32,000 nucleotides of DNA, from positions 180,001 through 212,000 of the forward strand of contig NC_014972.1 of NCBI RefSeq assembly GCF_000186885.1, written 5' to 3'. The DNA is from Desulfobulbus propionicus DSM 2032 (GTDB lineage: Bacteria; Desulfobacterota; Desulfobulbia; Desulfobulbales; Desulfobulbaceae). This document shows positions 464 to 18,973 of the stretch, piece after piece. The notes beneath the pieces are model-generated. The model was not told the origin of the DNA, did no database searches, and saw only the letters and a list, made by a program, of their open reading frames with translations. A program made the translations under genes and the position numbers. The stretch's first letter is position 1; each line of letters starts with the position of its first letter.

Positions 464-1000
464 TTACGCCTCGTTAACCGATATACTCCCAGTAGCGGAG
501 AGCAGAACCCTGCGCACATTAGGGGGGACTCCGATTTTGTATTGTCGGCGCACGGCTATGCATCTTGATTTTACAATTCGCTTTATAGATACCGCATCGC
601 CCTGATTTCCGCCGAGAACGTGGTAACAATCTGAGTCTTCACCGACATACAGGCCAACGTGCCCACCTGATCCTCTCTTAAAAACAAGTACATCTCCGAG
701 CTGTGCAGAAGGTGACTTTGTCCCCCATTTAGCCCAGGATCTTGCCCAGAGAGGACTGTCCGGCATATCCTTTCCAGACCGACGAGCCACAATGGCCATA
801 AACAGCCCACACCAGGGAATAGAATCAGCGTTGTAACCTGCAATGTTACATTCCTCCGCCCAGGCCAGGATATCTGGATTGTTTTCCTCCCCAACCACTT
901 CTTGAGTCCCGTAAAGCCTCAAGGCCTCAAGCAGCATTCTGGGGGCTGGCTCATTGGCTAACCACGCATACTCTTCAGGCAATTTTTGCGATCCTGTCAT
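464..1000 (-). CDS. Endolysin, TIGR02594-like (NlpC/P60-CHAP-type cell-wall hydrolase)
   Basis: 178 aa. The pattern NPDI..WAEE...D.IPWCG.F....ARSWAKWG....GDVLVFKRGSGGHVGLYVGE....LGGNQGDAVSI matches my recollection of the phage-associated TIGR02594 family. AGGAGG RBS. Last gene of the late operon. Confidence 0.8.
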   Translation of the reverse strand: MTGSQKLPEEYAWLANEPAPRMLLEALRLYGTQEVVGEENNPDILAWAEECNIAGYNADSIPWCGLFMAIVARRSGKDMPDSPLWARSWAKWGTKSPSAQLGDVLVFKRGSGGHVGLYVGEDSDCYHVLGGNQGDAVSIKRIVKSRCIAVRRQYKIGVPPNVRRVLLSATGSISVNEA

Positions 1001-2713: not shown

Positions 2714-4972
2714 TTAAAACAGGTAGACTCGATCGCCATCAAGAGCGATATACTCGCCATCGAGGGCAACGGCGTTTTGGTCGGCGTCGATGGCAACAGT
2801 GAGGCTCCACCTCTGCTGGCTGACAAGGCTCGCGCGAATGCTCTCAAGTTCAATCCTGACCGTTTCGACATCGGTGTGGCCGAGGGCGATTAGATCAGTG
2901 GTATCGCTTGTCCCGGTGATACCGGTTTGCTCCTTGAGCATCGCCCCCGTAACGGCGTCATAAACCCGGACAGCGTAGGTGACCCCGGCTTCCGGGCCGA
3001 TGTTGCCTTCGTCCTGGCGAACCAGGGTGACGGTCTGTTGCGTTCGATCCCGGTGCGCCCAGGTAATCGTTATGCCGTCCTGGATGTTGATCTTGTCAGG
3101 CCACCGCTGCCCATTGACCTGTACGTTGCCCGGCGGATAGGGCCGCATCATCCGCCCCACGCAGGTATGGGTGTCGGTGCTGGCGTCGGCCAGTTGCAAC
3201 CGCCCCTCGGCGGTGGACGGCAACAGCTTGATCTCCACCTGCTCGCCGACGGCGCGGTCGGTGCGGTCCAGGCCGAAGAACGATTGGTGGCACCACAGGA
3301 GGGTGCCGGCCGCATGGGCCACGGGGATGGTGTCGAGCACGCCCCGGTTGACCGTCAGGGTGCCATTGATGGCATCCATGGCGGTGATGGCCACCAGTTC
3401 GTCGCCCAATGCCGCATAGGTGCCGACCTTGACCAGATCGGTGTCGATATCCGCATCCTGCAACTGGATCACCGAGCTGATCTCCGGCGACAGCGGCATC
3501 GCCGTGGCGCTGACGAACGGGAAGGAGTCGGTATCCCGCTTGACGAACTCAGCGGCGCCCACGTTGCGGGTCCACATCTCATAGTTGAGGGCATCGCTGC
3601 TGGGGCGGTCGCAGCAGCAGGTGAGCATGGTGCTGTCGTCTTCCAGCTCGGCCAGCACGGCGGCGGACTCGCCGAAGAGGCGCACGAACTGCCACCAGGT
3701 GATTTCCTGGATTTTCCGCCGCACCGCATCGGCCGGCGCGGTCAGCGGGTTTGTCCACAGGCTTTCCGCCGGGGTGGTGATGGCCACCGGGCCCAGGCCG
3801 TAGACGTCGCGGGCCGCCTTGATGCGCAAGGTGCTGTCGGTGTACTCGCCGATCTCCACCTGGTTGACCCGCATGACCACGCCGGACAGGCCGATGGGCG
3901 GCCAATCGAAGACAAAACAGTCGCCGGGCTCAAGGCTCCAGTGCTTGCGGTTGACCGTAAGCGTGCAGGAGGCCAGGGGCATGGCCATCTGCTGGAGCTC
4001 GCGGGCCGCGATCTTGTGCGCCCACTCCTCGGTGGCGATGCCGGGCATTTCGACGGTGGCCTGGATGATCTGACCGCCGGCGCGGGTGATCCCGGCAATG
4101 TCCTGGACCGTGGTGGCCTGGGCCTGATTGGCCCGGTCCACCCATTTGACCGTCACCTGGTTGACCGCCTCGGCGGCTGAGGCAACGTAGTATTCCACCA
4201 GCTCCACCGCGCTGCGCTGGTCGATCACCGGCAACAGCGCCTTGGTGTAGTCGTTGCGGATCAGCTTGAGGGTGAGCAGGCCGGTGCGGTGGCTGAAATA
4301 GAGCACGCCGTCGATGTGGTCGAGGATGATGTTGAGGAAGTCCTCGATACTGCTGTCTCTGGCCCACAGGAGCGACAGGCCGAACCCCTCCTGCCGTGGG
4401 TCGGTGCCGGAGGCGAGAAAGTAGGCGGCGCTCTCGAACGAGGCTGTGTCCAGATCGGCCACCGGGTAGCCCAGCCCGCCCCAGGTGGTATTGGTCAGGG
4501 CCTCGTAGATGATGTGTGCCGGGTTCATATCCACGTATCCATCAGCGGCGACAATATCGGCCAGATCATCCCGCCAGCCAACCCTGGATCGCTGCCCCAG
4601 GATGGCCCACTCCTTGATGTACGGATTGTTGGCCGCCAAAAGGCACCGGCGGGCGATCAGTCCAAACAGCCCGCGGAATGCCGGAATATCATTGCCCAGT
4701 TTCTTTTGCAGATAACTGTTCTGCGGCTGGTCCGGCAGGCCAAAGCACACGTCGACATTGCCCTTGATGCCGCCTTCGCGGCCATCGCCGCCGAACAGGT
4801 TTGGCTTGCTGACGGCGATGGTCTGGTTGGCGGTCACCGCGCCTTCCCAGGCCCATTTGTCGCCGACCTTGATCTTGATGAGCTTGTCGAGCGCATGGCA
4901 GAACACCAGGTGCAGGCCCGCATAGTAGCGGTACCCGGTGACGTAACATTCATCCCCCTTGCCGCCGCCCAT
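2714..4972 (-). CDS. Host-specificity / tail-tip protein, J-like (main part of a split gene)
   Basis: 752 aa from the ATG at 4972 (TGATG-coupled). Starts MGGGKGDECYVTGYRYYAGLHLVFCH..IKVGDKWAWEG. The central NPAHIIYEALTN..WGGLGYP region resembles the lambda J / Phage-tail_3 core. Position fits after the gpL-like gene. Confidence 0.75.
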   Translation of the reverse strand: MGGGKGDECYVTGYRYYAGLHLVFCHALDKLIKIKVGDKWAWEGAVTANQTIAVSKPNLFGGDGREGGIKGNVDVCFGLPDQPQNSYLQKKLGNDIPAFRGLFGLIARRCLLAANNPYIKEWAILGQRSRVGWRDDLADIVAADGYVDMNPAHIIYEALTNTTWGGLGYPVADLDTASFESAAYFLASGTDPRQEGFGLSLLWARDSSIEDFLNIILDHIDGVLYFSHRTGLLTLKLIRNDYTKALLPVIDQRSAVELVEYYVASAAEAVNQVTVKWVDRANQAQATTVQDIAGITRAGGQIIQATVEMPGIATEEWAHKIAARELQQMAMPLASCTLTVNRKHWSLEPGDCFVFDWPPIGLSGVVMRVNQVEIGEYTDSTLRIKAARDVYGLGPVAITTPAESLWTNPLTAPADAVRRKIQEITWWQFVRLFGESAAVLAELEDDSTMLTCCCDRPSSDALNYEMWTRNVGAAEFVKRDTDSFPFVSATAMPLSPEISSVIQLQDADIDTDLVKVGTYAALGDELVAITAMDAINGTLTVNRGVLDTIPVAHAAGTLLWCHQSFFGLDRTDRAVGEQVEIKLLPSTAEGRLQLADASTDTHTCVGRMMRPYPPGNVQVNGQRWPDKINIQDGITITWAHRDRTQQTVTLVRQDEGNIGPEAGVTYAVRVYDAVTGAMLKEQTGITGTSDTTDLIALGHTDVETVRIELESIRASLVSQQRWSLTVAIDADQNAVALDGEYIALDGDRVYLF
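2965..3019. repeat. 55-bp direct repeat, copy B (inside the J-like gene, about 100 codons before its stop)
   Basis: See copy A at 1753-1807. Confidence 0.9.
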
Positions 4973-5217
4973 CAGACGCACCCCCCACGCTTGGCCGCCG
5001 CATCGCCTGCAATCGGCTCCCTGGTCCAACCGGTGGACGCGGCGAACTCCACCGCCGCGATGGCCATGGCGTCACCGGAGGCCAACAACAGCTCGGCATC
5101 CACCCCATCGTTCAGCACGTCCTGCCAGGCAATGCCCCGGCTGGCAAACCACCTGCGCATGCCGCGATTGCAGTATTCCAGTGCCCGGAAATGCCAGAGG
5201 TAAACACGCTTGTTCAT
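4972..5217 (-). CDS. 81-aa ORF inserted within the J-like gene (unknown function)
   Basis: MNKRVYLWHFRALEYCNRGMRRWFASRGIAWQDVLNDGVDAELLLASGDAMAIAAVEFA... The ATG overlaps the upstream stop (ATGA) and the stop overlaps the downstream ATG (TGATG). The track ORF (to 5445) is longer but antisense-shadowed. Confidence 0.5.
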   Translation of the reverse strand: MNKRVYLWHFRALEYCNRGMRRWFASRGIAWQDVLNDGVDAELLLASGDAMAIAAVEFAASTGWTREPIAGDAAAKRGGCV

Positions 5218-5450
5218 ATTTTCTTGCCGCCTCCACAGGATTCGATCGGCGTGGTCTTGATGTCGCCGTACCACACGCAGTTGGTCTTGCTGATCAGTCG
5301 GGTGCCGAACAGCACCGGCACCGGACTGGAAGAGTCCACGGTGGTCGTTTCCACGTCGCCAGGCGTCGGGGTCACCTGTGTGTACGGCTTGGGCCGCAAC
5401 AGATAGGAGGCAACCACCAGGACCGCGAGCACCACATATTGCCAAGCCAT
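5214..5450 (-). CDS. N-terminal fragment of the J-like tail-tip protein (78 aa)
   Basis: GGGAGG RBS. Hydrophobic N-terminus (WQYVVLAVLVVASYLL), then VPVLFGTRLISKTNCVWYGDIKTTPIESCGGGKKI*. The sequence continues naturally into MGGGKGDECYV... of ORF 2714..4972. Confidence 0.6.
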   Translation of the reverse strand: MAWQYVVLAVLVVASYLLRPKPYTQVTPTPGDVETTTVDSSSPVPVLFGTRLISKTNCVWYGDIKTTPIESCGGGKKI

Positions 5451-5459
5451 GCCGCCTCC

Positions 5460-6260
5460 CTACACCAATGCGTCGCCGCTGAACGGGTTCTTGGTGGGCA
5501 GATAGGGCAGCCCGCCATAGTTGACGATGTTGTTGAATTTGCCCCCGCAGTCATTCATGTCGTGGCGGCAGCCCGGCCACAGGGTCACCTCTGTCCCGGC
5601 CACCAGGCCGCCGATGGCATCGACCATGGTGATCGTCGCCCCCTCGTGGCCGTTGATCATCCGCAGTTCGGTCCCGGCCTGCAGCATGCCGCCGAGAAAA
5701 TACCCCGAGGCGAACGAGGTCAGCCCGTCGACGGTGAGCCTGCCGTCAATCACCTCCATCACGGTGCCGACCACCTTGCGGGCGTCGGCATTGATCCCGC
5801 ACGCGGCCGAGTAGAGCACATGCGGACACCCCACCTGGTACACCCGCCGCAATCCGGCCCGCTTGAACAGGGTGAAGGCCGAGTCGCTGGAAAGGGTGGC
5901 CACGGACCCGGCCCACTTGCAGCCGGTGATCCGGCCCTTCCAGAACAGCTGTTTCTCGCTGTCGCCGTGGTGCAGCCGGAAAATGGTCACGATCACCGTG
6001 CCGGCCAGCCAGCCGTCACGGAACAACAGGGCCACATCGTTGGCCGCGTTGATTTCGATGTCCATGGTGCTCCGCCGGGCATCGCCGCCCTTGGAGAACC
6101 CGCCGCGCTTGATGTAGACGGGCTGGTATTTCTCCTCAGCCAAACTCCCCACCTCATGGTCCGCGCTGGTGAACAGCCATTGCTGGGCGCCCACCGAGAA
6201 GCGGTACAACTCCAGCGGCTGGCCGGAAGAGTCGGATTCTTCATAGGTCGCGTAGCTCAT
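5460..6260 (-). CDS. Tail-tip protein, gpL-like (DUF2163 / BR0599-type)
   Basis: 266 aa from MSYATYEES (ATGA-coupled). The C-terminal WPGCRHDMNDCGGKFNNIVNYGGLPYLPTKNPF matches the Phage_BR0599 cysteine motif as I recall it. Confidence 0.75.
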   Translation of the reverse strand: MSYATYEESDSSGQPLELYRFSVGAQQWLFTSADHEVGSLAEEKYQPVYIKRGGFSKGGDARRSTMDIEINAANDVALLFRDGWLAGTVIVTIFRLHHGDSEKQLFWKGRITGCKWAGSVATLSSDSAFTLFKRAGLRRVYQVGCPHVLYSAACGINADARKVVGTVMEVIDGRLTVDGLTSFASGYFLGGMLQAGTELRMINGHEGATITMVDAIGGLVAGTEVTLWPGCRHDMNDCGGKFNNIVNYGGLPYLPTKNPFSGDALV

Positions 6261-7822
6261 GGCAGCACCACGATCGGCAGGGTGACCTCGGCACACTCGG
6301 CGGTCACCCAATGGACGGTAATCTCATCGCTGTCCAGGCGGCACAGCTCCAGCCAGGCGCAGCGGTTGAGCGCTTCTGCGGACACAGCCACCGGCAAGGC
6401 GGCGTCCAGGGTCAGCTTTTCCTCGCCGCTGGCCAGGGTCTCCACGCCGAGCACCTTCCGCCGGATGATTGTCCCATCGGTGGTGATCAGTTCAAGGTGC
6501 TGGCGGGCCGCGCTGTCCTTGAGGGCGTACTCGTAACCGATCGGCTGGATGACGATGGACGATGCGCCCGCTTCCGCCGGCACCGAGAGCTCGAACCCCC
6601 GGTCATTGGCGGCCAGCCAGAACGGCGCCAGCCGGCCGCCCCTGGCCTTGAGAAAGGCGAGAAAGGTGTTGATGTCGGCCCGGCCGACCAGCAGGAACCT
6701 GGCATCCCGGCTCAACACCGGCTCCTCGGATTGCACATCGAACTCCAGCACCCCGGTGTCGTTGTCCAGCCGCACCCACTTGTTGTCGTAGCCCTCCTCG
6801 CCATCCTCCCAGCTCGGCACGAACGGACACAGCGGCACATCCAGATACAGCTCCACGGCGCCCCCGGACGGTTCCCAACCGTCGTCCGTGGCCAGCAAGC
6901 TGAGCCGATAATCGCCCACGTCCTCGGTGAACCTACTGACTCGCCGCTGCTCCAGGGAGAGGCAAGAGCGGCACGGCGCCATCCAAGCCAACCCGGCCTG
7001 CCAGTCCCGGCCGAACGGCGCATCCACCGCCAAATAGGTGGCACCCACGCCGGTGATGGTCCGCACCTCGGCGGTCTGCCAATCGGTCCACACCGCCACC
7101 GGCGTACCGATGACGAAATTGTCCGAGCCCTCGGTGATCGGGATGGTGGTGGCCCCGGCGGCAATATCGCCAGTCAGCCGGAACGCATCCCGCCAGATCG
7201 GCGCGAACAGGTACCGGGACTTGCGCATCCCCAGCCAGGTCTCCAGCTGGCGGCGGCCAGCCCCGGACACCAGCATCCGCACCTCCCAAGTACGCCGAGG
7301 CAGGGTACGCAACTGGACCCGCTGCTCGGTGCGGTCATGGGCAATCATCACATCCGTTTTCCAGGCCAGCGACTCATCCAGCCCGTTCTCCCAGTTGTGC
7401 GGGAAGAACAGATAGCCGATGTCGCCGGAGAGCTGCGGCGGCCGGGTGCCAAGGATGGTCCACAGCGGATCGTTTGTGGCCGTGGTCAAAAAGCTGAACA
7501 GGGCCTCGAAGATGGCCGGGCCTTCGGAGTCGACCGAGACAACGATCCTCTGGCTTGTGTGTGGCGCGATGGTCGCCGGAGTGGTCAGGTCAAGGCCGAT
7601 CCCCTCCACCTGGCCCGAGGCGTTAATTGCCGACACGGTCCGGGCAACGCTCTCGCCGTTGTGCAGATACACCGGAAACGCCTGATCCTTGGACACCAGC
7701 CCCATATCAAACCGTTCCGGCCGGATGTACCGGGTGAACAGCGCCGTCTCCAGGTTGGTTGTCCTGGCGCTCAACCCGGACAACGGCACCATGGACATTT
7801 GCATGATTGTTCCTACCGGCAT
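6257..7822 (-). CDS. Minor tail / distal-tail or tip-complex protein
   Basis: 521 aa, immediately upstream of the gpL-like gene and coupled to it. No motif recognised with certainty. Called by synteny. Confidence 0.45.
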   Translation of the reverse strand: MPVGTIMQMSMVPLSGLSARTTNLETALFTRYIRPERFDMGLVSKDQAFPVYLHNGESVARTVSAINASGQVEGIGLDLTTPATIAPHTSQRIVVSVDSEGPAIFEALFSFLTTATNDPLWTILGTRPPQLSGDIGYLFFPHNWENGLDESLAWKTDVMIAHDRTEQRVQLRTLPRRTWEVRMLVSGAGRRQLETWLGMRKSRYLFAPIWRDAFRLTGDIAAGATTIPITEGSDNFVIGTPVAVWTDWQTAEVRTITGVGATYLAVDAPFGRDWQAGLAWMAPCRSCLSLEQRRVSRFTEDVGDYRLSLLATDDGWEPSGGAVELYLDVPLCPFVPSWEDGEEGYDNKWVRLDNDTGVLEFDVQSEEPVLSRDARFLLVGRADINTFLAFLKARGGRLAPFWLAANDRGFELSVPAEAGASSIVIQPIGYEYALKDSAARQHLELITTDGTIIRRKVLGVETLASGEEKLTLDAALPVAVSAEALNRCAWLELCRLDSDEITVHWVTAECAEVTLPIVVLP

Positions 7823-15171: not shown

Positions 15172-16722
15172 TTACTGACCAGCGTTCTTGACCAGTGCCT
15201 TCCAGTCCACGGCCTTGCCGCAGACATCGATACGGACCTTGTACTCCACGCCATCGGTGGTCCAGCCGGTCTTGGACTCCAACCAGGGCGTGCGATTGCC
15301 GTTGAGGAAGAAGAGGCGCACGGTCTTGCGCTTGGGACCGGCAAAGTAGTAAGCGGTCGGGCTTGCCTCATCGAGCCGGGCATCATAGGCCCGCTGGAAG
15401 CGGGTACCGCCGTAGATGTTGGTCCGGGTGCTGCCCTTGTCGTCCGCGGAGAACTGGTTGGAGGCAAAGAAAATCTCGGCGGAGCCCTCGATGGACTTGG
15501 GGGCGATGAAATACTGCAGGGAGATGTTTAGCGCCTGCTTGGCCTTGAGTCCCTTCTGGAGTCCGGCCAGCTTGATGGCCTCGGCAATGGTGGCCTCGCC
15601 AAGCGCCCCCGGCGTACCCAGGTTCTTGTGGTCGGCGTGAAACAGAGCCTTGCCATCCCGCATGGCCGCGTTGGCGGTCAAAACGCCATAGGCGACATCG
15701 CCGATCTTGCGGCTGGCCGCCTCGCCCATGGACATGTACATATCGGCCATGGCCATGAGGTCATCGTTGATGACCGTGGTACGGGTGATCGCCGCCATCT
15801 TGCCAAAGGTGGCAATCTGGTAGACCTCCTTGGTATCGCTCCGATCACCGTACTTGTAGCCGGAATCGTTCTTGATCTCGTCGAGATCATCGAACTCCGA
15901 CACCATGGCCAAGGTGTTCTGCTTGAAGTCCGGCACCGATCCGGATCCGTCCGCCCAAATCTCCCAGGTCTCGTCCGCCGAGGCATAGCCCTCGAACAGG
16001 GCCTTGTTGGCCACGTTGCTCATCAACACCGACAGGTCGCTTACGGTCATGGCGCGGCCGATCATCTCCATGGGATCGCCACCCGCCGACTGCCCGGCCT
16101 TGCGCAGGCACTCGCGGGCGAGTTCGCGCAGGGAGTAGCCGCGAAAGTCCCGGCCCACGTCATGGGCTCGATCCACCTTCCAGCCACAGCCTTCAAGGGT
16201 GGTCACCAGTCCGCGTTCACCGTCCAGGGGCAAGCCGCAGCGCAGGAACAGGCCGGTGCAGGCGGCGGCGCGGAACTTGTCGCGTTCATCCACCACAATT
16301 TGCGGTCCGGACGGGGCAAACCCCGGATGGTGCGCAACACTCCGTTGGGCCAGTGCGTCCAGGACCATTGAGCGGGCCTGATCAATGGTCACCTCCGGCT
16401 TGAGCATGGCCGTGCGCTGGTCGCCCTCGATGCCATGCCGGTTGCACAGTTCCATGATCTCCAGCGCCCGGGTGAAGCCGTCGTCGGACCGGTTGTTCTC
16501 CGGTGCCGGCGGTGGGGTGGGCTGGGGTGTGACGGGTTGCACCGCCGGAGGCGTTGCAGGGGCAGAGGGTATAGACCGCTGGCCATCGCCACCGATCTGC
16601 TCAGGGCCATCGAACACGACACCACGTGTCTGCATATCTTGGTAAAAATTCCACGCCTCATCCTCGGGGGCGTCGGCGCGGAGACCATTTGCCAACAAAA
16701 ATACTCGTAACTTGGGATTCAT
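15172..16722 (-). CDS. Major capsid protein with a long N-terminal (scaffold/delta-like) extension
   Basis: 516 aa, GGGAGGAAAG RBS. The C-terminal about 300 aa (FGKMAAITRTTVINDDL...ALFHADHKNLG...YFIAPKS...) resemble HK97-fold / Mu gpT-type capsids. Follows the protease. No separate scaffold gene. Confidence 0.75.
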   Translation of the reverse strand: MNPKLRVFLLANGLRADAPEDEAWNFYQDMQTRGVVFDGPEQIGGDGQRSIPSAPATPPAVQPVTPQPTPPPAPENNRSDDGFTRALEIMELCNRHGIEGDQRTAMLKPEVTIDQARSMVLDALAQRSVAHHPGFAPSGPQIVVDERDKFRAAACTGLFLRCGLPLDGERGLVTTLEGCGWKVDRAHDVGRDFRGYSLRELARECLRKAGQSAGGDPMEMIGRAMTVSDLSVLMSNVANKALFEGYASADETWEIWADGSGSVPDFKQNTLAMVSEFDDLDEIKNDSGYKYGDRSDTKEVYQIATFGKMAAITRTTVINDDLMAMADMYMSMGEAASRKIGDVAYGVLTANAAMRDGKALFHADHKNLGTPGALGEATIAEAIKLAGLQKGLKAKQALNISLQYFIAPKSIEGSAEIFFASNQFSADDKGSTRTNIYGGTRFQRAYDARLDEASPTAYYFAGPKRKTVRLFFLNGNRTPWLESKTGWTTDGVEYKVRIDVCGKAVDWKALVKNAGQ

Positions 16723-17396: not shown

Positions 17397-18973
17397 TCGT
17401 CCTGTTGTTTTTTGTCGGATTGCGGGTTTCCGGCCACCGCCGCCGGGTTGGTTTGCAGGGCCTTGGAGGTGGTCACCGTCGGCAACTCACGTTTGACCAA
17501 CATATCCATCCACTCCTTGTGCTCGTTGAGTACCGCCTCGGGATCGCGGCCCCGCGCGGCAATGATCTCCTGCGGGCTCCACAGATAATTGTCCTTGAGG
17601 TCGATCTGGCCCCGGCTTTCGCGCAGCAGGTCAAGCGGCTCGACTCCGTTGGGTTGCCAGAGGCATTCCAGCCACGGCCGTGGATTGGCCGCATATCCCG
17701 GCATCCTCACCCTGCCGGAAAGGTGGCAGGCATCCATGAATGCCCGGAAGATTGGTTGGCTAAACTGGCGGATATGGCGGCTCACCATCGGCCGCAGCGA
17801 CTTTTGCCAGTCGTTGCGTACGGTGCGCGTGGTGTTGTAGTTGAGCCCGGTCGCATCACCGCTGATCAGCTCGTAGGGGACGTTCACCGACACTGCCAAC
17901 ATCTGCAGCACGAAGCGGACAAAGGGTGTGAACGAATCCCCAGGCACATCGGTGCTGTTGATGGTGACCTTGTCCCCTGGGCTCATGAAATCGATGATGG
18001 CGTTGTCGAGTACGGTCAACCGGTGGCCGGTTTCCGTATCCTTGGTGGTACGGCCCTTCTGCCAGCGAGCCACATCGGCCGTCTCAACAAAGGCCAGCCA
18101 CTTAGCCGCCATTTTCGCCCGGTCGATATTGGCGCCGAGAAATTCCTGCAGGTCGTCGGCCAGGAGAACCGCCGGAGTGAACGGACTCACCCCACGTAAC
18201 TGTCCGGGACGCAGGGTCTCGAATCCGTGGATCACGCTGGCGGCGGGCACCCGCACCGACCGTTGCTTGCCGGTGAGCTGCGAAAATCCGTCGGGAACGC
18301 GGAAATGGTAGGCAATCACCGCCCCAGTGATCCGGTCGAACTCGACGCCCTGGTCAATCATGGTATTTTCGCCCTTGGTGGCGGCATATTCGCTGGAGAG
18401 CCAGTCCGCCTCATAGCACTGCAGCACCAGGGGGAGAAAACGGCGGGGGTTCTTGTCCCACCCAAGCACGAGGATGGATTCGCCGTCGACTACATCCTGG
18501 CGCTTCCACAGGCGCTCGATTTCGTGGTAGTGGAGCTTGCCGCCGGCATCGCATTCGTCGCACCAGCGGGACCATGCATCCTCGATGGCGGCAATGGCGG
18601 TGGTGTGGAGCTTGGCCTTGCCGGTTTCGGTGGCGCCGCGCGTCACCCGGCTCTGCATGGTGATGCCGGTGCCGATGGTATGGTCGACCAGGACCCTGAC
18701 CGCCCGGGCAAAGTAGGCAAAATCCCCCACCAGCTGCCGGGTGCGGTTGCGGATGGTGGGGTTGCTGGTCCGGATCAGGGTGTTGATGTCCGTTCCCACC
18801 GGAGCCCAGTCGCCCAAGAGGCGCGATTCCTTGGCTGCCGCGAACATCCGCAGACTGAAATTGCGGATACGGGCCTCCATCATCCGGCTTTCCAGGCCGG
18901 GGAACAGCATGCCCACGGTGCGGTCGATCACCCGTTCGACCGTGGCCAGCACCCTTTGTCCGTTCAACCTCAA
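17393..18973 (-). CDS. Portal protein, lambda family
   Basis: 526 aa. The N-terminal region (RLLGDWAPVGTDINTLIRTSNPTIRNRTRQLVGDFAYFARAVRVLVDHTIGTGI) matches the lambda-gpB-type portal pattern. The track start is TTG overlapping the upstream stop, so the true start is uncertain. Confidence 0.85.
   Translation of the reverse strand: MRLNGQRVLATVERVIDRTVGMLFPGLESRMMEARIRNFSLRMFAAAKESRLLGDWAPVGTDINTLIRTSNPTIRNRTRQLVGDFAYFARAVRVLVDHTIGTGITMQSRVTRGATETGKAKLHTTAIAAIEDAWSRWCDECDAGGKLHYHEIERLWKRQDVVDGESILVLGWDKNPRRFLPLVLQCYEADWLSSEYAATKGENTMIDQGVEFDRITGAVIAYHFRVPDGFSQLTGKQRSVRVPAASVIHGFETLRPGQLRGVSPFTPAVLLADDLQEFLGANIDRAKMAAKWLAFVETADVARWQKGRTTKDTETGHRLTVLDNAIIDFMSPGDKVTINSTDVPGDSFTPFVRFVLQMLAVSVNVPYELISGDATGLNYNTTRTVRNDWQKSLRPMVSRHIRQFSQPIFRAFMDACHLSGRVRMPGYAANPRPWLECLWQPNGVEPLDLLRESRGQIDLKDNYLWSPQEIIAARGRDPEAVLNEHKEWMDMLVKRELPTVTTSKALQTNPAAVAGNPQSDKKQQDE

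Follow-up and report, generated by a model that had tools for sequence, protein, structure and literature searches.

The 32,000-nucleotide stretch of DNA analyzed here (the window) is prophage DNA of Desulfobulbus propionicus DSM 2032, and this study concerns three adjacent tail-tip genes on its minus strand, designated A, B, and C, together with a 9-bp direct repeat found at their junctions. Reading and translating the strand from 4800 to 5520 revealed three coupled open reading frames (ORFs) in three different frames. ORF A (5450..5214) encodes 78 amino acids (aa), with the C-terminal end …TTPIESCGGGKKI (ESCGGGKKI). ORF B (5217..4972) encodes 81 aa, and its ATG start overlaps the TGA stop codon of A as ATGA; the TGA stop of B in turn overlaps, as TGATG, the ATG of ORF C (4972..2714), which encodes 752 aa beginning with MGGGKGDECYVTGYRYYAGLH (MGGGKGDECYV). 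An exact GGCGGCAAG, read on the minus strand, is present at both the A/B and the B/C junctions; it corresponds to CTTGCCGCC at 4958-4966 and 5223-5231, spaced by 265 bp, and it encodes G-G-K as whole codons in both A and C. The match extends to 11 of 12 nucleotides (nt), and deletion of one repeat copy plus the spacer would produce an in-frame A-C fusion. The initial annotation of this DNA had already reported the ORF coordinates, the overlapping stops and starts, the three frames, the repeat, and the in-frame fusion on deletion, and all of these statements were confirmed; it had gone on to interpret B as a small cassette inserted, with a target duplication-like repeat, into a glycine linker of the tail gene, and to regard this cassette either as a selfish or accessory insertion of a new kind or as a domesticated tip-associated factor.

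The product of gene C (2714..4972, minus strand) is a J-like central tip or baseplate hub protein that matches Phage-tail_3 (Pfam PF13550; E = 1.7e-18). It aligned with positions 74 to 801 of the PHROG 1101 profile (E = 2e-242), with the Chi tip protein (PDB 8VJH_A; E = 6e-104), and with the JBD30 hub protein gp53 (PDB 8RK3_o; E = 2e-102). The Chi homologue is chain A of the virion structure, and C is accordingly a virion part.

Gene A (5214..5450, minus strand) encodes a small tail-tip "insertion" protein, identical in sequence to Despr_0184, that matched the full 78-position profile of PHROG 1180 (E = 7e-19) and had no Pfam match. It carries an N-terminal hydrophobic helix, an LxPKP motif, a PVLFGT..NxVWYGD motif, and a basic tail. 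Gene A also matched positions 6 to 72 of PHROG 1101; since the same profile covers C, some members of that family must hold both segments in one chain. The relationship of A to chi_068 of phage Chi (PDB 8VJH chain U, "Tail assembly protein 1," 76 aa) was weak (E = 0.028), as was that to residues 151 to 198 of lambda gpI, the LxPK…PVLYG segment (hhalign E = 0.0095 across 40 columns at a low probability). The published account of the T1 tail tip describes lambda gpI, T1 gp34, and their Chi equivalent as an insertion protein, three copies of which make up a tripod within the tip lumen beneath the C terminus of the tape measure (PMC11945409), and it is on this description that the placement of chain U in the Chi tip rests. 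Both A (Pin1_0030) and C (Pin1_0032) are listed in the proteomes of CsCl-purified PIN1 and PIN2 virions (PMC12264135, Table 1), and in the GenBank records of PaMx25, SCUT-S3, and Kharn, A is labeled a structural protein and B a hypothetical one. Because of Chi chain U and the insertion-protein description, A is taken, by analogy, to be a virion tip component resembling the C-terminal part of lambda gpI. A separate observation concerns a 6,216-aa protein (P0157) in which 19 separate stretches match residues 21 to 59 of A; this may reflect either a true repeat protein or an artefact of low-complexity sequence.

Gene B (4972..5217, minus strand) belongs to PHROG 1196 (E = 8e-21). Its AlphaFold2 model has a five-helix domain (residues 1 to 62) followed by a disordered tail, with a mean pLDDT (predicted local distance difference test) score of 86.8; the alignment behind the model was shallow, since a word-indexed search with B alone gave three matches, but the model was still confident. 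The motif YC.RG.R.WF..G.D...FL..G is conserved. The only structural neighbors of B were uncharacterized phage proteins that are its orthologues, and nothing in the PDB resembled it by fold or by sequence. No nuclease, transposase, or integrase domain was detected in B by Pfam, PHROG, or structure comparisons. The Chi orthologue of B is not among the deposited chains of 8VJH. Likewise, the PIN1/PIN2 virion mass spectrometry list contains the flanking A and C proteins and lacks the B orthologue (PMC12264135, Table 1); PIN1 was confirmed to carry the same A-B-C trio. We infer that B is most likely a non-virion tail-tip assembly factor.

The reading frame of B is open upstream across the whole of gene A, giving a 157-aa ORF at 4972..5445 (minus strand), and a 151-aa counterpart is annotated in phage B3 (L171 10601-11056, ORF55). 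How far the frame stays open ahead of the ATGA follows GC content, however, and in most low-GC relatives it closes within 1 to 10 codons. A genuine overlapping long form of B was therefore rejected as a GC artefact, and an A-B frameshift product was rejected on the same grounds. Overextended calls of this kind may inflate the 128-position PHROG 1196 profile.

The trio is not peculiar to the window. By tblastn, 300 phage records contain B-like sequences and 187 contain A-like sequences, and a profile search recovered 3,534 A-family proteins, the best 120 of which are all 74 to 78 aa long. The three genes occur in PaMx25 (Nipunavirus), RcTitan (Titanvirus), SCUT-S3 (Septimatrevirus), Sphingomonas phage Kharn, Vibrio phage KF4, Salmonella phage Chi (Casjensviridae), Klebsiella phage PIN1, and Pseudomonas phage B3; in all phages inspected, the hub gene is followed, in this order, by genes for proteins of about 75 aa and of 60 to 80 aa and by a J-like gene. 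Metagenome relatives whose A proteins are 68 to 77% identical to that of the window have the same layout. When loci fetched with the N terminus of C were scanned with hidden Markov models of A, B, and the C N terminus, A, B, and C were separate ORFs in that order in 83 of 89. Across lineages, identity to the window proteins ranges from 23 to 76% for A and from 26 to 51% for B. With its A-, B-, and C-family proteins (PHROGs 1180, 1196, and 1101), the MGG..K..GY.YY pattern at the start of C, and its upstream genes, the window locus is of the Chi/YuA/PaMx25 type. The trio is a widespread, old, and already annotated tail-tip module, of which the window holds another copy in a Desulfobulbus prophage.

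Several individual loci depart from this layout. In two split loci, something extra may be inserted at the start of C: in L145 (7427-7813), the C profile match is in two pieces and the start is disturbed, and in L165 (7410-8095), approximately 680 nt lie between B and C. At L022 (995-) and L023 (2483-), A and B are both missing, and a C gene with the start MSGGGKGSKSVTVGYRYY comes right after the hub gene; L032 (2450-) has the same C start, also without A or B, and its upstream gene looks different. These three loci nest within a split clade of the C tree described below, and A and B have apparently been lost together. In the window's own clade only (window 5214-5450, 4972-5217, and 4880-4972; L003, L004, and L011 to L015), cysteines cluster around the A/C junction: NCVWYGD and SCGGGK in A, D(E/S)C and FCHA in C, and the GGCV* end of B. 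They could form a clade-specific metal or disulfide site linking the proteins.

The 9-bp repeat, which first suggested an insertion, is not statistically special in its context. The window contains five copies of the 9-mer, whereas shuffles predict 0.79; one of the further copies (18536-18544) encodes G-G-K in frame within the portal gene, and two more direct repeats of 10/11 nt lie inside the same 400 bp. The initial annotation had itself allowed that the match might be just a recurring Gly-rich codon string, and GGCGGCAAG proved to be a recurring Gly-Lys one. Comparison of the last 33 nt of A with the first 33 nt of C in the 83 trios gave a longest exact match of 4 nt in 15 trios, 5 nt in 20, 6 nt in 24, 7 nt in 15, 8 nt in 6, and 9 nt in 3, so that the 9 nt of the window is the end of a continuous distribution. 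In its nearest relatives (L003, L004, and L011 to L015), the shared match is merely 4 to 8 nt, and in several of them C starts with MGSGGDSC, without any G-G-K.

Each copy of the repeat lies within a terminal motif that is found across the family, …(K/S/C)GG(G)KK* at the end of A and (M/V)GG(G/S)(S/K)K…TVGYKY at the start of C. The downstream copy (4958..4966, minus strand) encodes residues 3 to 5 of C, within the (M/V)GG(G/S)(S/K)K N-terminal arm conserved in J-like proteins. Lambda gpJ begins with MGKGSSKG, C-only loci with MSGGGKGSKS, and fused proteins have …SSKK.T.GYKY at the equivalent place; the C head (MGGxSKK) is an intrinsic and ancient feature of J-like proteins. The upstream copy (5223..5231, minus strand) was read directly as G-G-K in the tail of A and, with the preceding GGA, forms GGAGG (5230-5234), a Shine-Dalgarno (SD)-like string 12 nt before the start codon of B. 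In 66 of 74 nonredundant trios, the codons that end A include an SD-like string (GGAGG, AAGG, or similar), and GGA, otherwise a rare glycine codon, accounts for 27% of glycine codons there versus 13% in C genes. The final AAR-TGA of A provides the overlapping ATG or GTG of B, and a 4-nt A/B overlap (ATGA or GTGA) is found in the great majority of trios. The tail of A may thus double as the translation initiation region of B, a case of dual coding in which the K-G-G-K-K-stop sequence would be constrained at the DNA level because it holds both a ribosome-binding site (RBS) and an overlapping start. A GGGGGG run in the last codons of B (4981..4986, minus strand; …RGGCV*), 8 nt before the ATG of C, may be an SD-like site for C; the GGCV* end is kept in the window's clade. 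In a GC-rich genome, the Gly-Lys motifs of the A tail and the C head would be spelled with the same preferred codons, and a 9-nt match would arise by chance. The repeat is a coincidence of motifs and not an insertion scar.

Loci in which A and C form a single gene were also found. The initial annotation had stated that the two segments belong to one polypeptide in RcGTA g15-type proteins; such a fused state was verified for members of PHROG 1101 and for the fused proteins described here. When A was scored against 1.84 billion cluster representatives, approximately 19 long proteins (650 to 1,500 aa) with A at the N terminus were among the best 150. A search of IMG/VR with the N termini of these fused proteins returned 74 fused and 6 split loci. 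Over all loci scanned, 89 were split with B between A and C, 74 were fused, 3 had C only, and 2 were truncated. B was present in 89/89 split loci, always between A and C, whereas no B-like ORF was found in any frame within approximately 7 kb on either side of the gene in the 74 fused loci (0/74). The association of B with the split state is complete in this sample, and because of it B is most likely an assembly factor tied to that state.

On a neighbor-joining (NJ) tree built from the N-terminal 400 residues of C, architecture was strongly clustered, with 9 parsimony changes versus 39 to 57 when labels were shuffled. Under midpoint rooting, both deep groups consist of fused loci and the split loci gather in a single large cluster, with seven fused/split changes on the tree. 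The linkers of the deep fused proteins (…K.KTG(L/M)FSSKK.T.GYKY) contain one G and one SSKK, whereas split genes have G-G and K-K on both halves. Three fused loci nested among split relatives (L144, L156, and L110) have short and differing junctions (e.g., …ALKKKGQTFGYAYY) without the LFSS linker, and they look like independent secondary fusions with loss of B. Two readings fit these data: either a fused gene was split long ago when B was acquired, or separate I and J genes are ancestral and both fusion and the gain of B are derived. The tree, which has neither support values nor an outgroup, is compatible with both; in either case the event is an old one rather than something particular to the window locus.

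The homologies, the conservation of the trio, the lack of a conserved repeat, and the strict pairing of B with split loci are shown by the data; beyond them, we consider it probable that the locus is a standard siphovirus tail-tip module of three coupled genes in which B most likely serves in assembly only and the repeat is not a scar. Under this explanation, A would be a gpI-like insertion protein placed inside the virion tip cone and C the J-like hub or central fiber protein, while B, made in step with both by means of the overlapping stop and start codons, would act during tip assembly and would not be retained in the virion. Of the two proposals in the initial annotation, the domesticated tip-associated factor was closer to the truth, except that B has not been seen in virions. 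Several points weigh against our explanation. The homology between A and gpI is weak by sequence (E of approximately 0.01 to 0.03) and leans on a published structural comparison; the role of B in assembly is putative, and so is its PHROG label of "tail assembly chaperone." As a small protein that is possibly disordered or of low copy number, B could escape detection in virions. Furthermore, I and J are separate in lambda and T1, which have no B gene, so that B is not universally needed when the two are split, and the SD spacing in the window (12 nt) is above the optimum.

The alternative that survives best moves the insertion proposed in the initial annotation far back in evolution: a fused A-C gene would have been split when B entered the Gly/Lys linker with a short duplication (…GGKK* / MGG.SKK), after which the two halves could no longer be joined without B; such a history would be compatible with a role for B in assembly today. 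It would account for the perfect association of B with the split state, for the deep fused groups and single large split cluster of the midpoint-rooted tree, and for the single G and SSKK of deep fused linkers compared with the G-G and K-K on each of the split halves. However, the separate state may itself be ancestral, as I and J are distinct genes in lambda and T1, which lack B, and the lambda J protein already starts with MGKGSSKG; the tree carries no support values and is rooted at its midpoint alone; the nested fused loci among its seven changes look secondary; and the GGKK tail of A is independently explained by the RBS and start of B. We regard this history as possible but less likely. 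A more specific version, in which B is the relic of a gene-splitting insertion into the linker of a fused gpI-J gene, was kept as the factor that reunites the halves, and was lost upon refusion, seems somewhat more doubtful still; if true, it would amount to a "self-perpetuating gene fission" in an essential virion gene, spread over many siphovirus lineages.

It could also be envisioned that B does belong to the virion, perhaps as a low-copy-number or disordered lumen or ejection protein. The gene is located amid virion genes and is tightly coupled to A and C; moreover, small flexible proteins are often not resolved by cryo-electron microscopy, and a protein of approximately 70 aa can escape mass spectrometry. 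Nevertheless, B is not a chain of 8VJH and is unlisted in both PIN proteomes, which do list the equally small A and contaminants such as holin; the GenBank labels distinguish a structural A from a hypothetical B, and B is dispensable in all fused lineages. This reading is unlikely.

The proposal of a recent mobile or selfish cassette inserted into the prophage's J gene with a 9-bp target site duplication drew on the exact direct repeat that flanks a 265-bp unit, the removal of which restores one ORF. It did not withstand comparison with other loci. Relatives at every distance have A, B, and C as separate genes, with B in the same place in each (from 77% down to approximately 25% identity) and the DNA repeat not conserved, a pattern that the initial annotation had named as refuting its view; the presence of B is not patchy, as all split relatives carry it at one site. 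No terminal inverted repeats and no nuclease or transposase domain were found. B-family matches fell solely between A and C. The divergence of B is of the same order as that of A, and the fused "empty" genes have a different linker. A recent insertion is accordingly very improbable.

Equally remote is recoding, by bypass or frameshift between the matching GGC-GGC-AAG sites or by RNA splicing, that would yield a fused A-C protein (…ESCGGGKGDECYV…): matching codons at both sites with a stop soon after the first give a superficial analogy to T4 gene 60, but these codons are not conserved in relatives, the 265-nt gap encodes a conserved and well-folding protein, no Rfam intron or other RNA family was found in 4600-5700, Chi A is a separate 76-aa chain in a solved virion, and there is no conserved A-B frameshift product, the B frame upstream of the ATGA being one that tracks GC content. 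An intein was rejected, as the insert is out of frame.

The genes around the trio make up a complete siphovirus structural block, comprising the large terminase, portal, protease-capsid fusion, major tail protein, tape measure, Dit-like, and gpL/BR0599-type hub genes. Immediately upstream of A lies the hub gene (5460..6311, minus strand), which is gpL and RcGTA g13 like (Phage_BR0599; Pfam PF09356 and PF09931; PHROG 778) and occupies the same position in every related locus compared; its real start is probably downstream of the listed TTG. The tip module is headed by a distal-tail-protein-like gene (6257..7822, minus strand; PHROG 1082, E = 5e-96), in the same gene order as in Chi, PaMx25, and RcTitan. 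Tape measure, Dit-like, and gpL-like hub genes thus precede the trio in the window, as in trio-bearing relatives. A megablast search of the region against phage genomes found no near-identical DNA. Elsewhere in the window, a 516-aa ORF (15172-16722, minus strand) that matches PHROG 4523, "major head and protease protein," is the apparent protease-capsid fusion, and a 178-aa protein (464-1000, minus strand) encoded downstream of the tail genes, with weak CHAP and NlpC-P60 matches, could be a lysin or a tail-associated peptidase.

The window locus itself adds little, given that A and C have homologues in solved phage structures. The B family (PHROG 1196), present in every split locus and in no fused one, provides a testable hypothesis for an uncharacterized protein, namely, that B assists assembly and is required only where the gpI-like and J-like segments are made as two polypeptides. 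The locus also serves as a caution that short, exact repeats at gene junctions can stem from conserved terminal motifs combined with an embedded RBS and codon bias.

Among known systems, the tail tip of phage Chi (PDB 8VJH) is the direct counterpart of the window trio. Following Dit-like and hub genes, chi_068, chi_069, and chi_070 (76, 79, and 1,296 aa) have the same order and similar sizes; A matches chi_068, C matches chi_070, and chi_069 has the B motif. Unlike the window, Chi has a longer C protein with an extra distal fiber, its A protein ends in AKQAKK rather than GGGKK, there is no DNA repeat, and the host is an enterobacterium and not Desulfobulbus. The fused A-C proteins of PHROG 1101 (e.g., P0180, P0235, and L059) likewise combine an A-like N terminus with a C-like body; however, each is encoded by a single ORF with a …KTG(L/M)FSSKK… linker, and none has B nearby.

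The arrangement is also reminiscent of lambda K-I-J and T1 gp34/gp33, in which the gene for a small insertion protein lies directly upstream of a J-like gene; lambda gpI shares the LxPK…PVLYG motif, and the N terminus of J is rich in G, S, and K. In contrast to A, lambda gpI has a long additional N-terminal part (223 versus 78 aa), and lambda has gpK, lacks a B gene, and separates I from J by a 60-bp gap without translational overlap. A looser parallel is offered by the lambda G/GT-type chaperones, which are small non-virion proteins encoded in the tail gene block, and the PHROGs of both A and B are labeled "tail assembly chaperone." The lambda pair, however, sits between the tube and tape measure genes, whereas B lies between tip genes and A is a virion protein; the window trio has no conserved slippery site or frameshift product, and the label is probably misapplied to both A and B.

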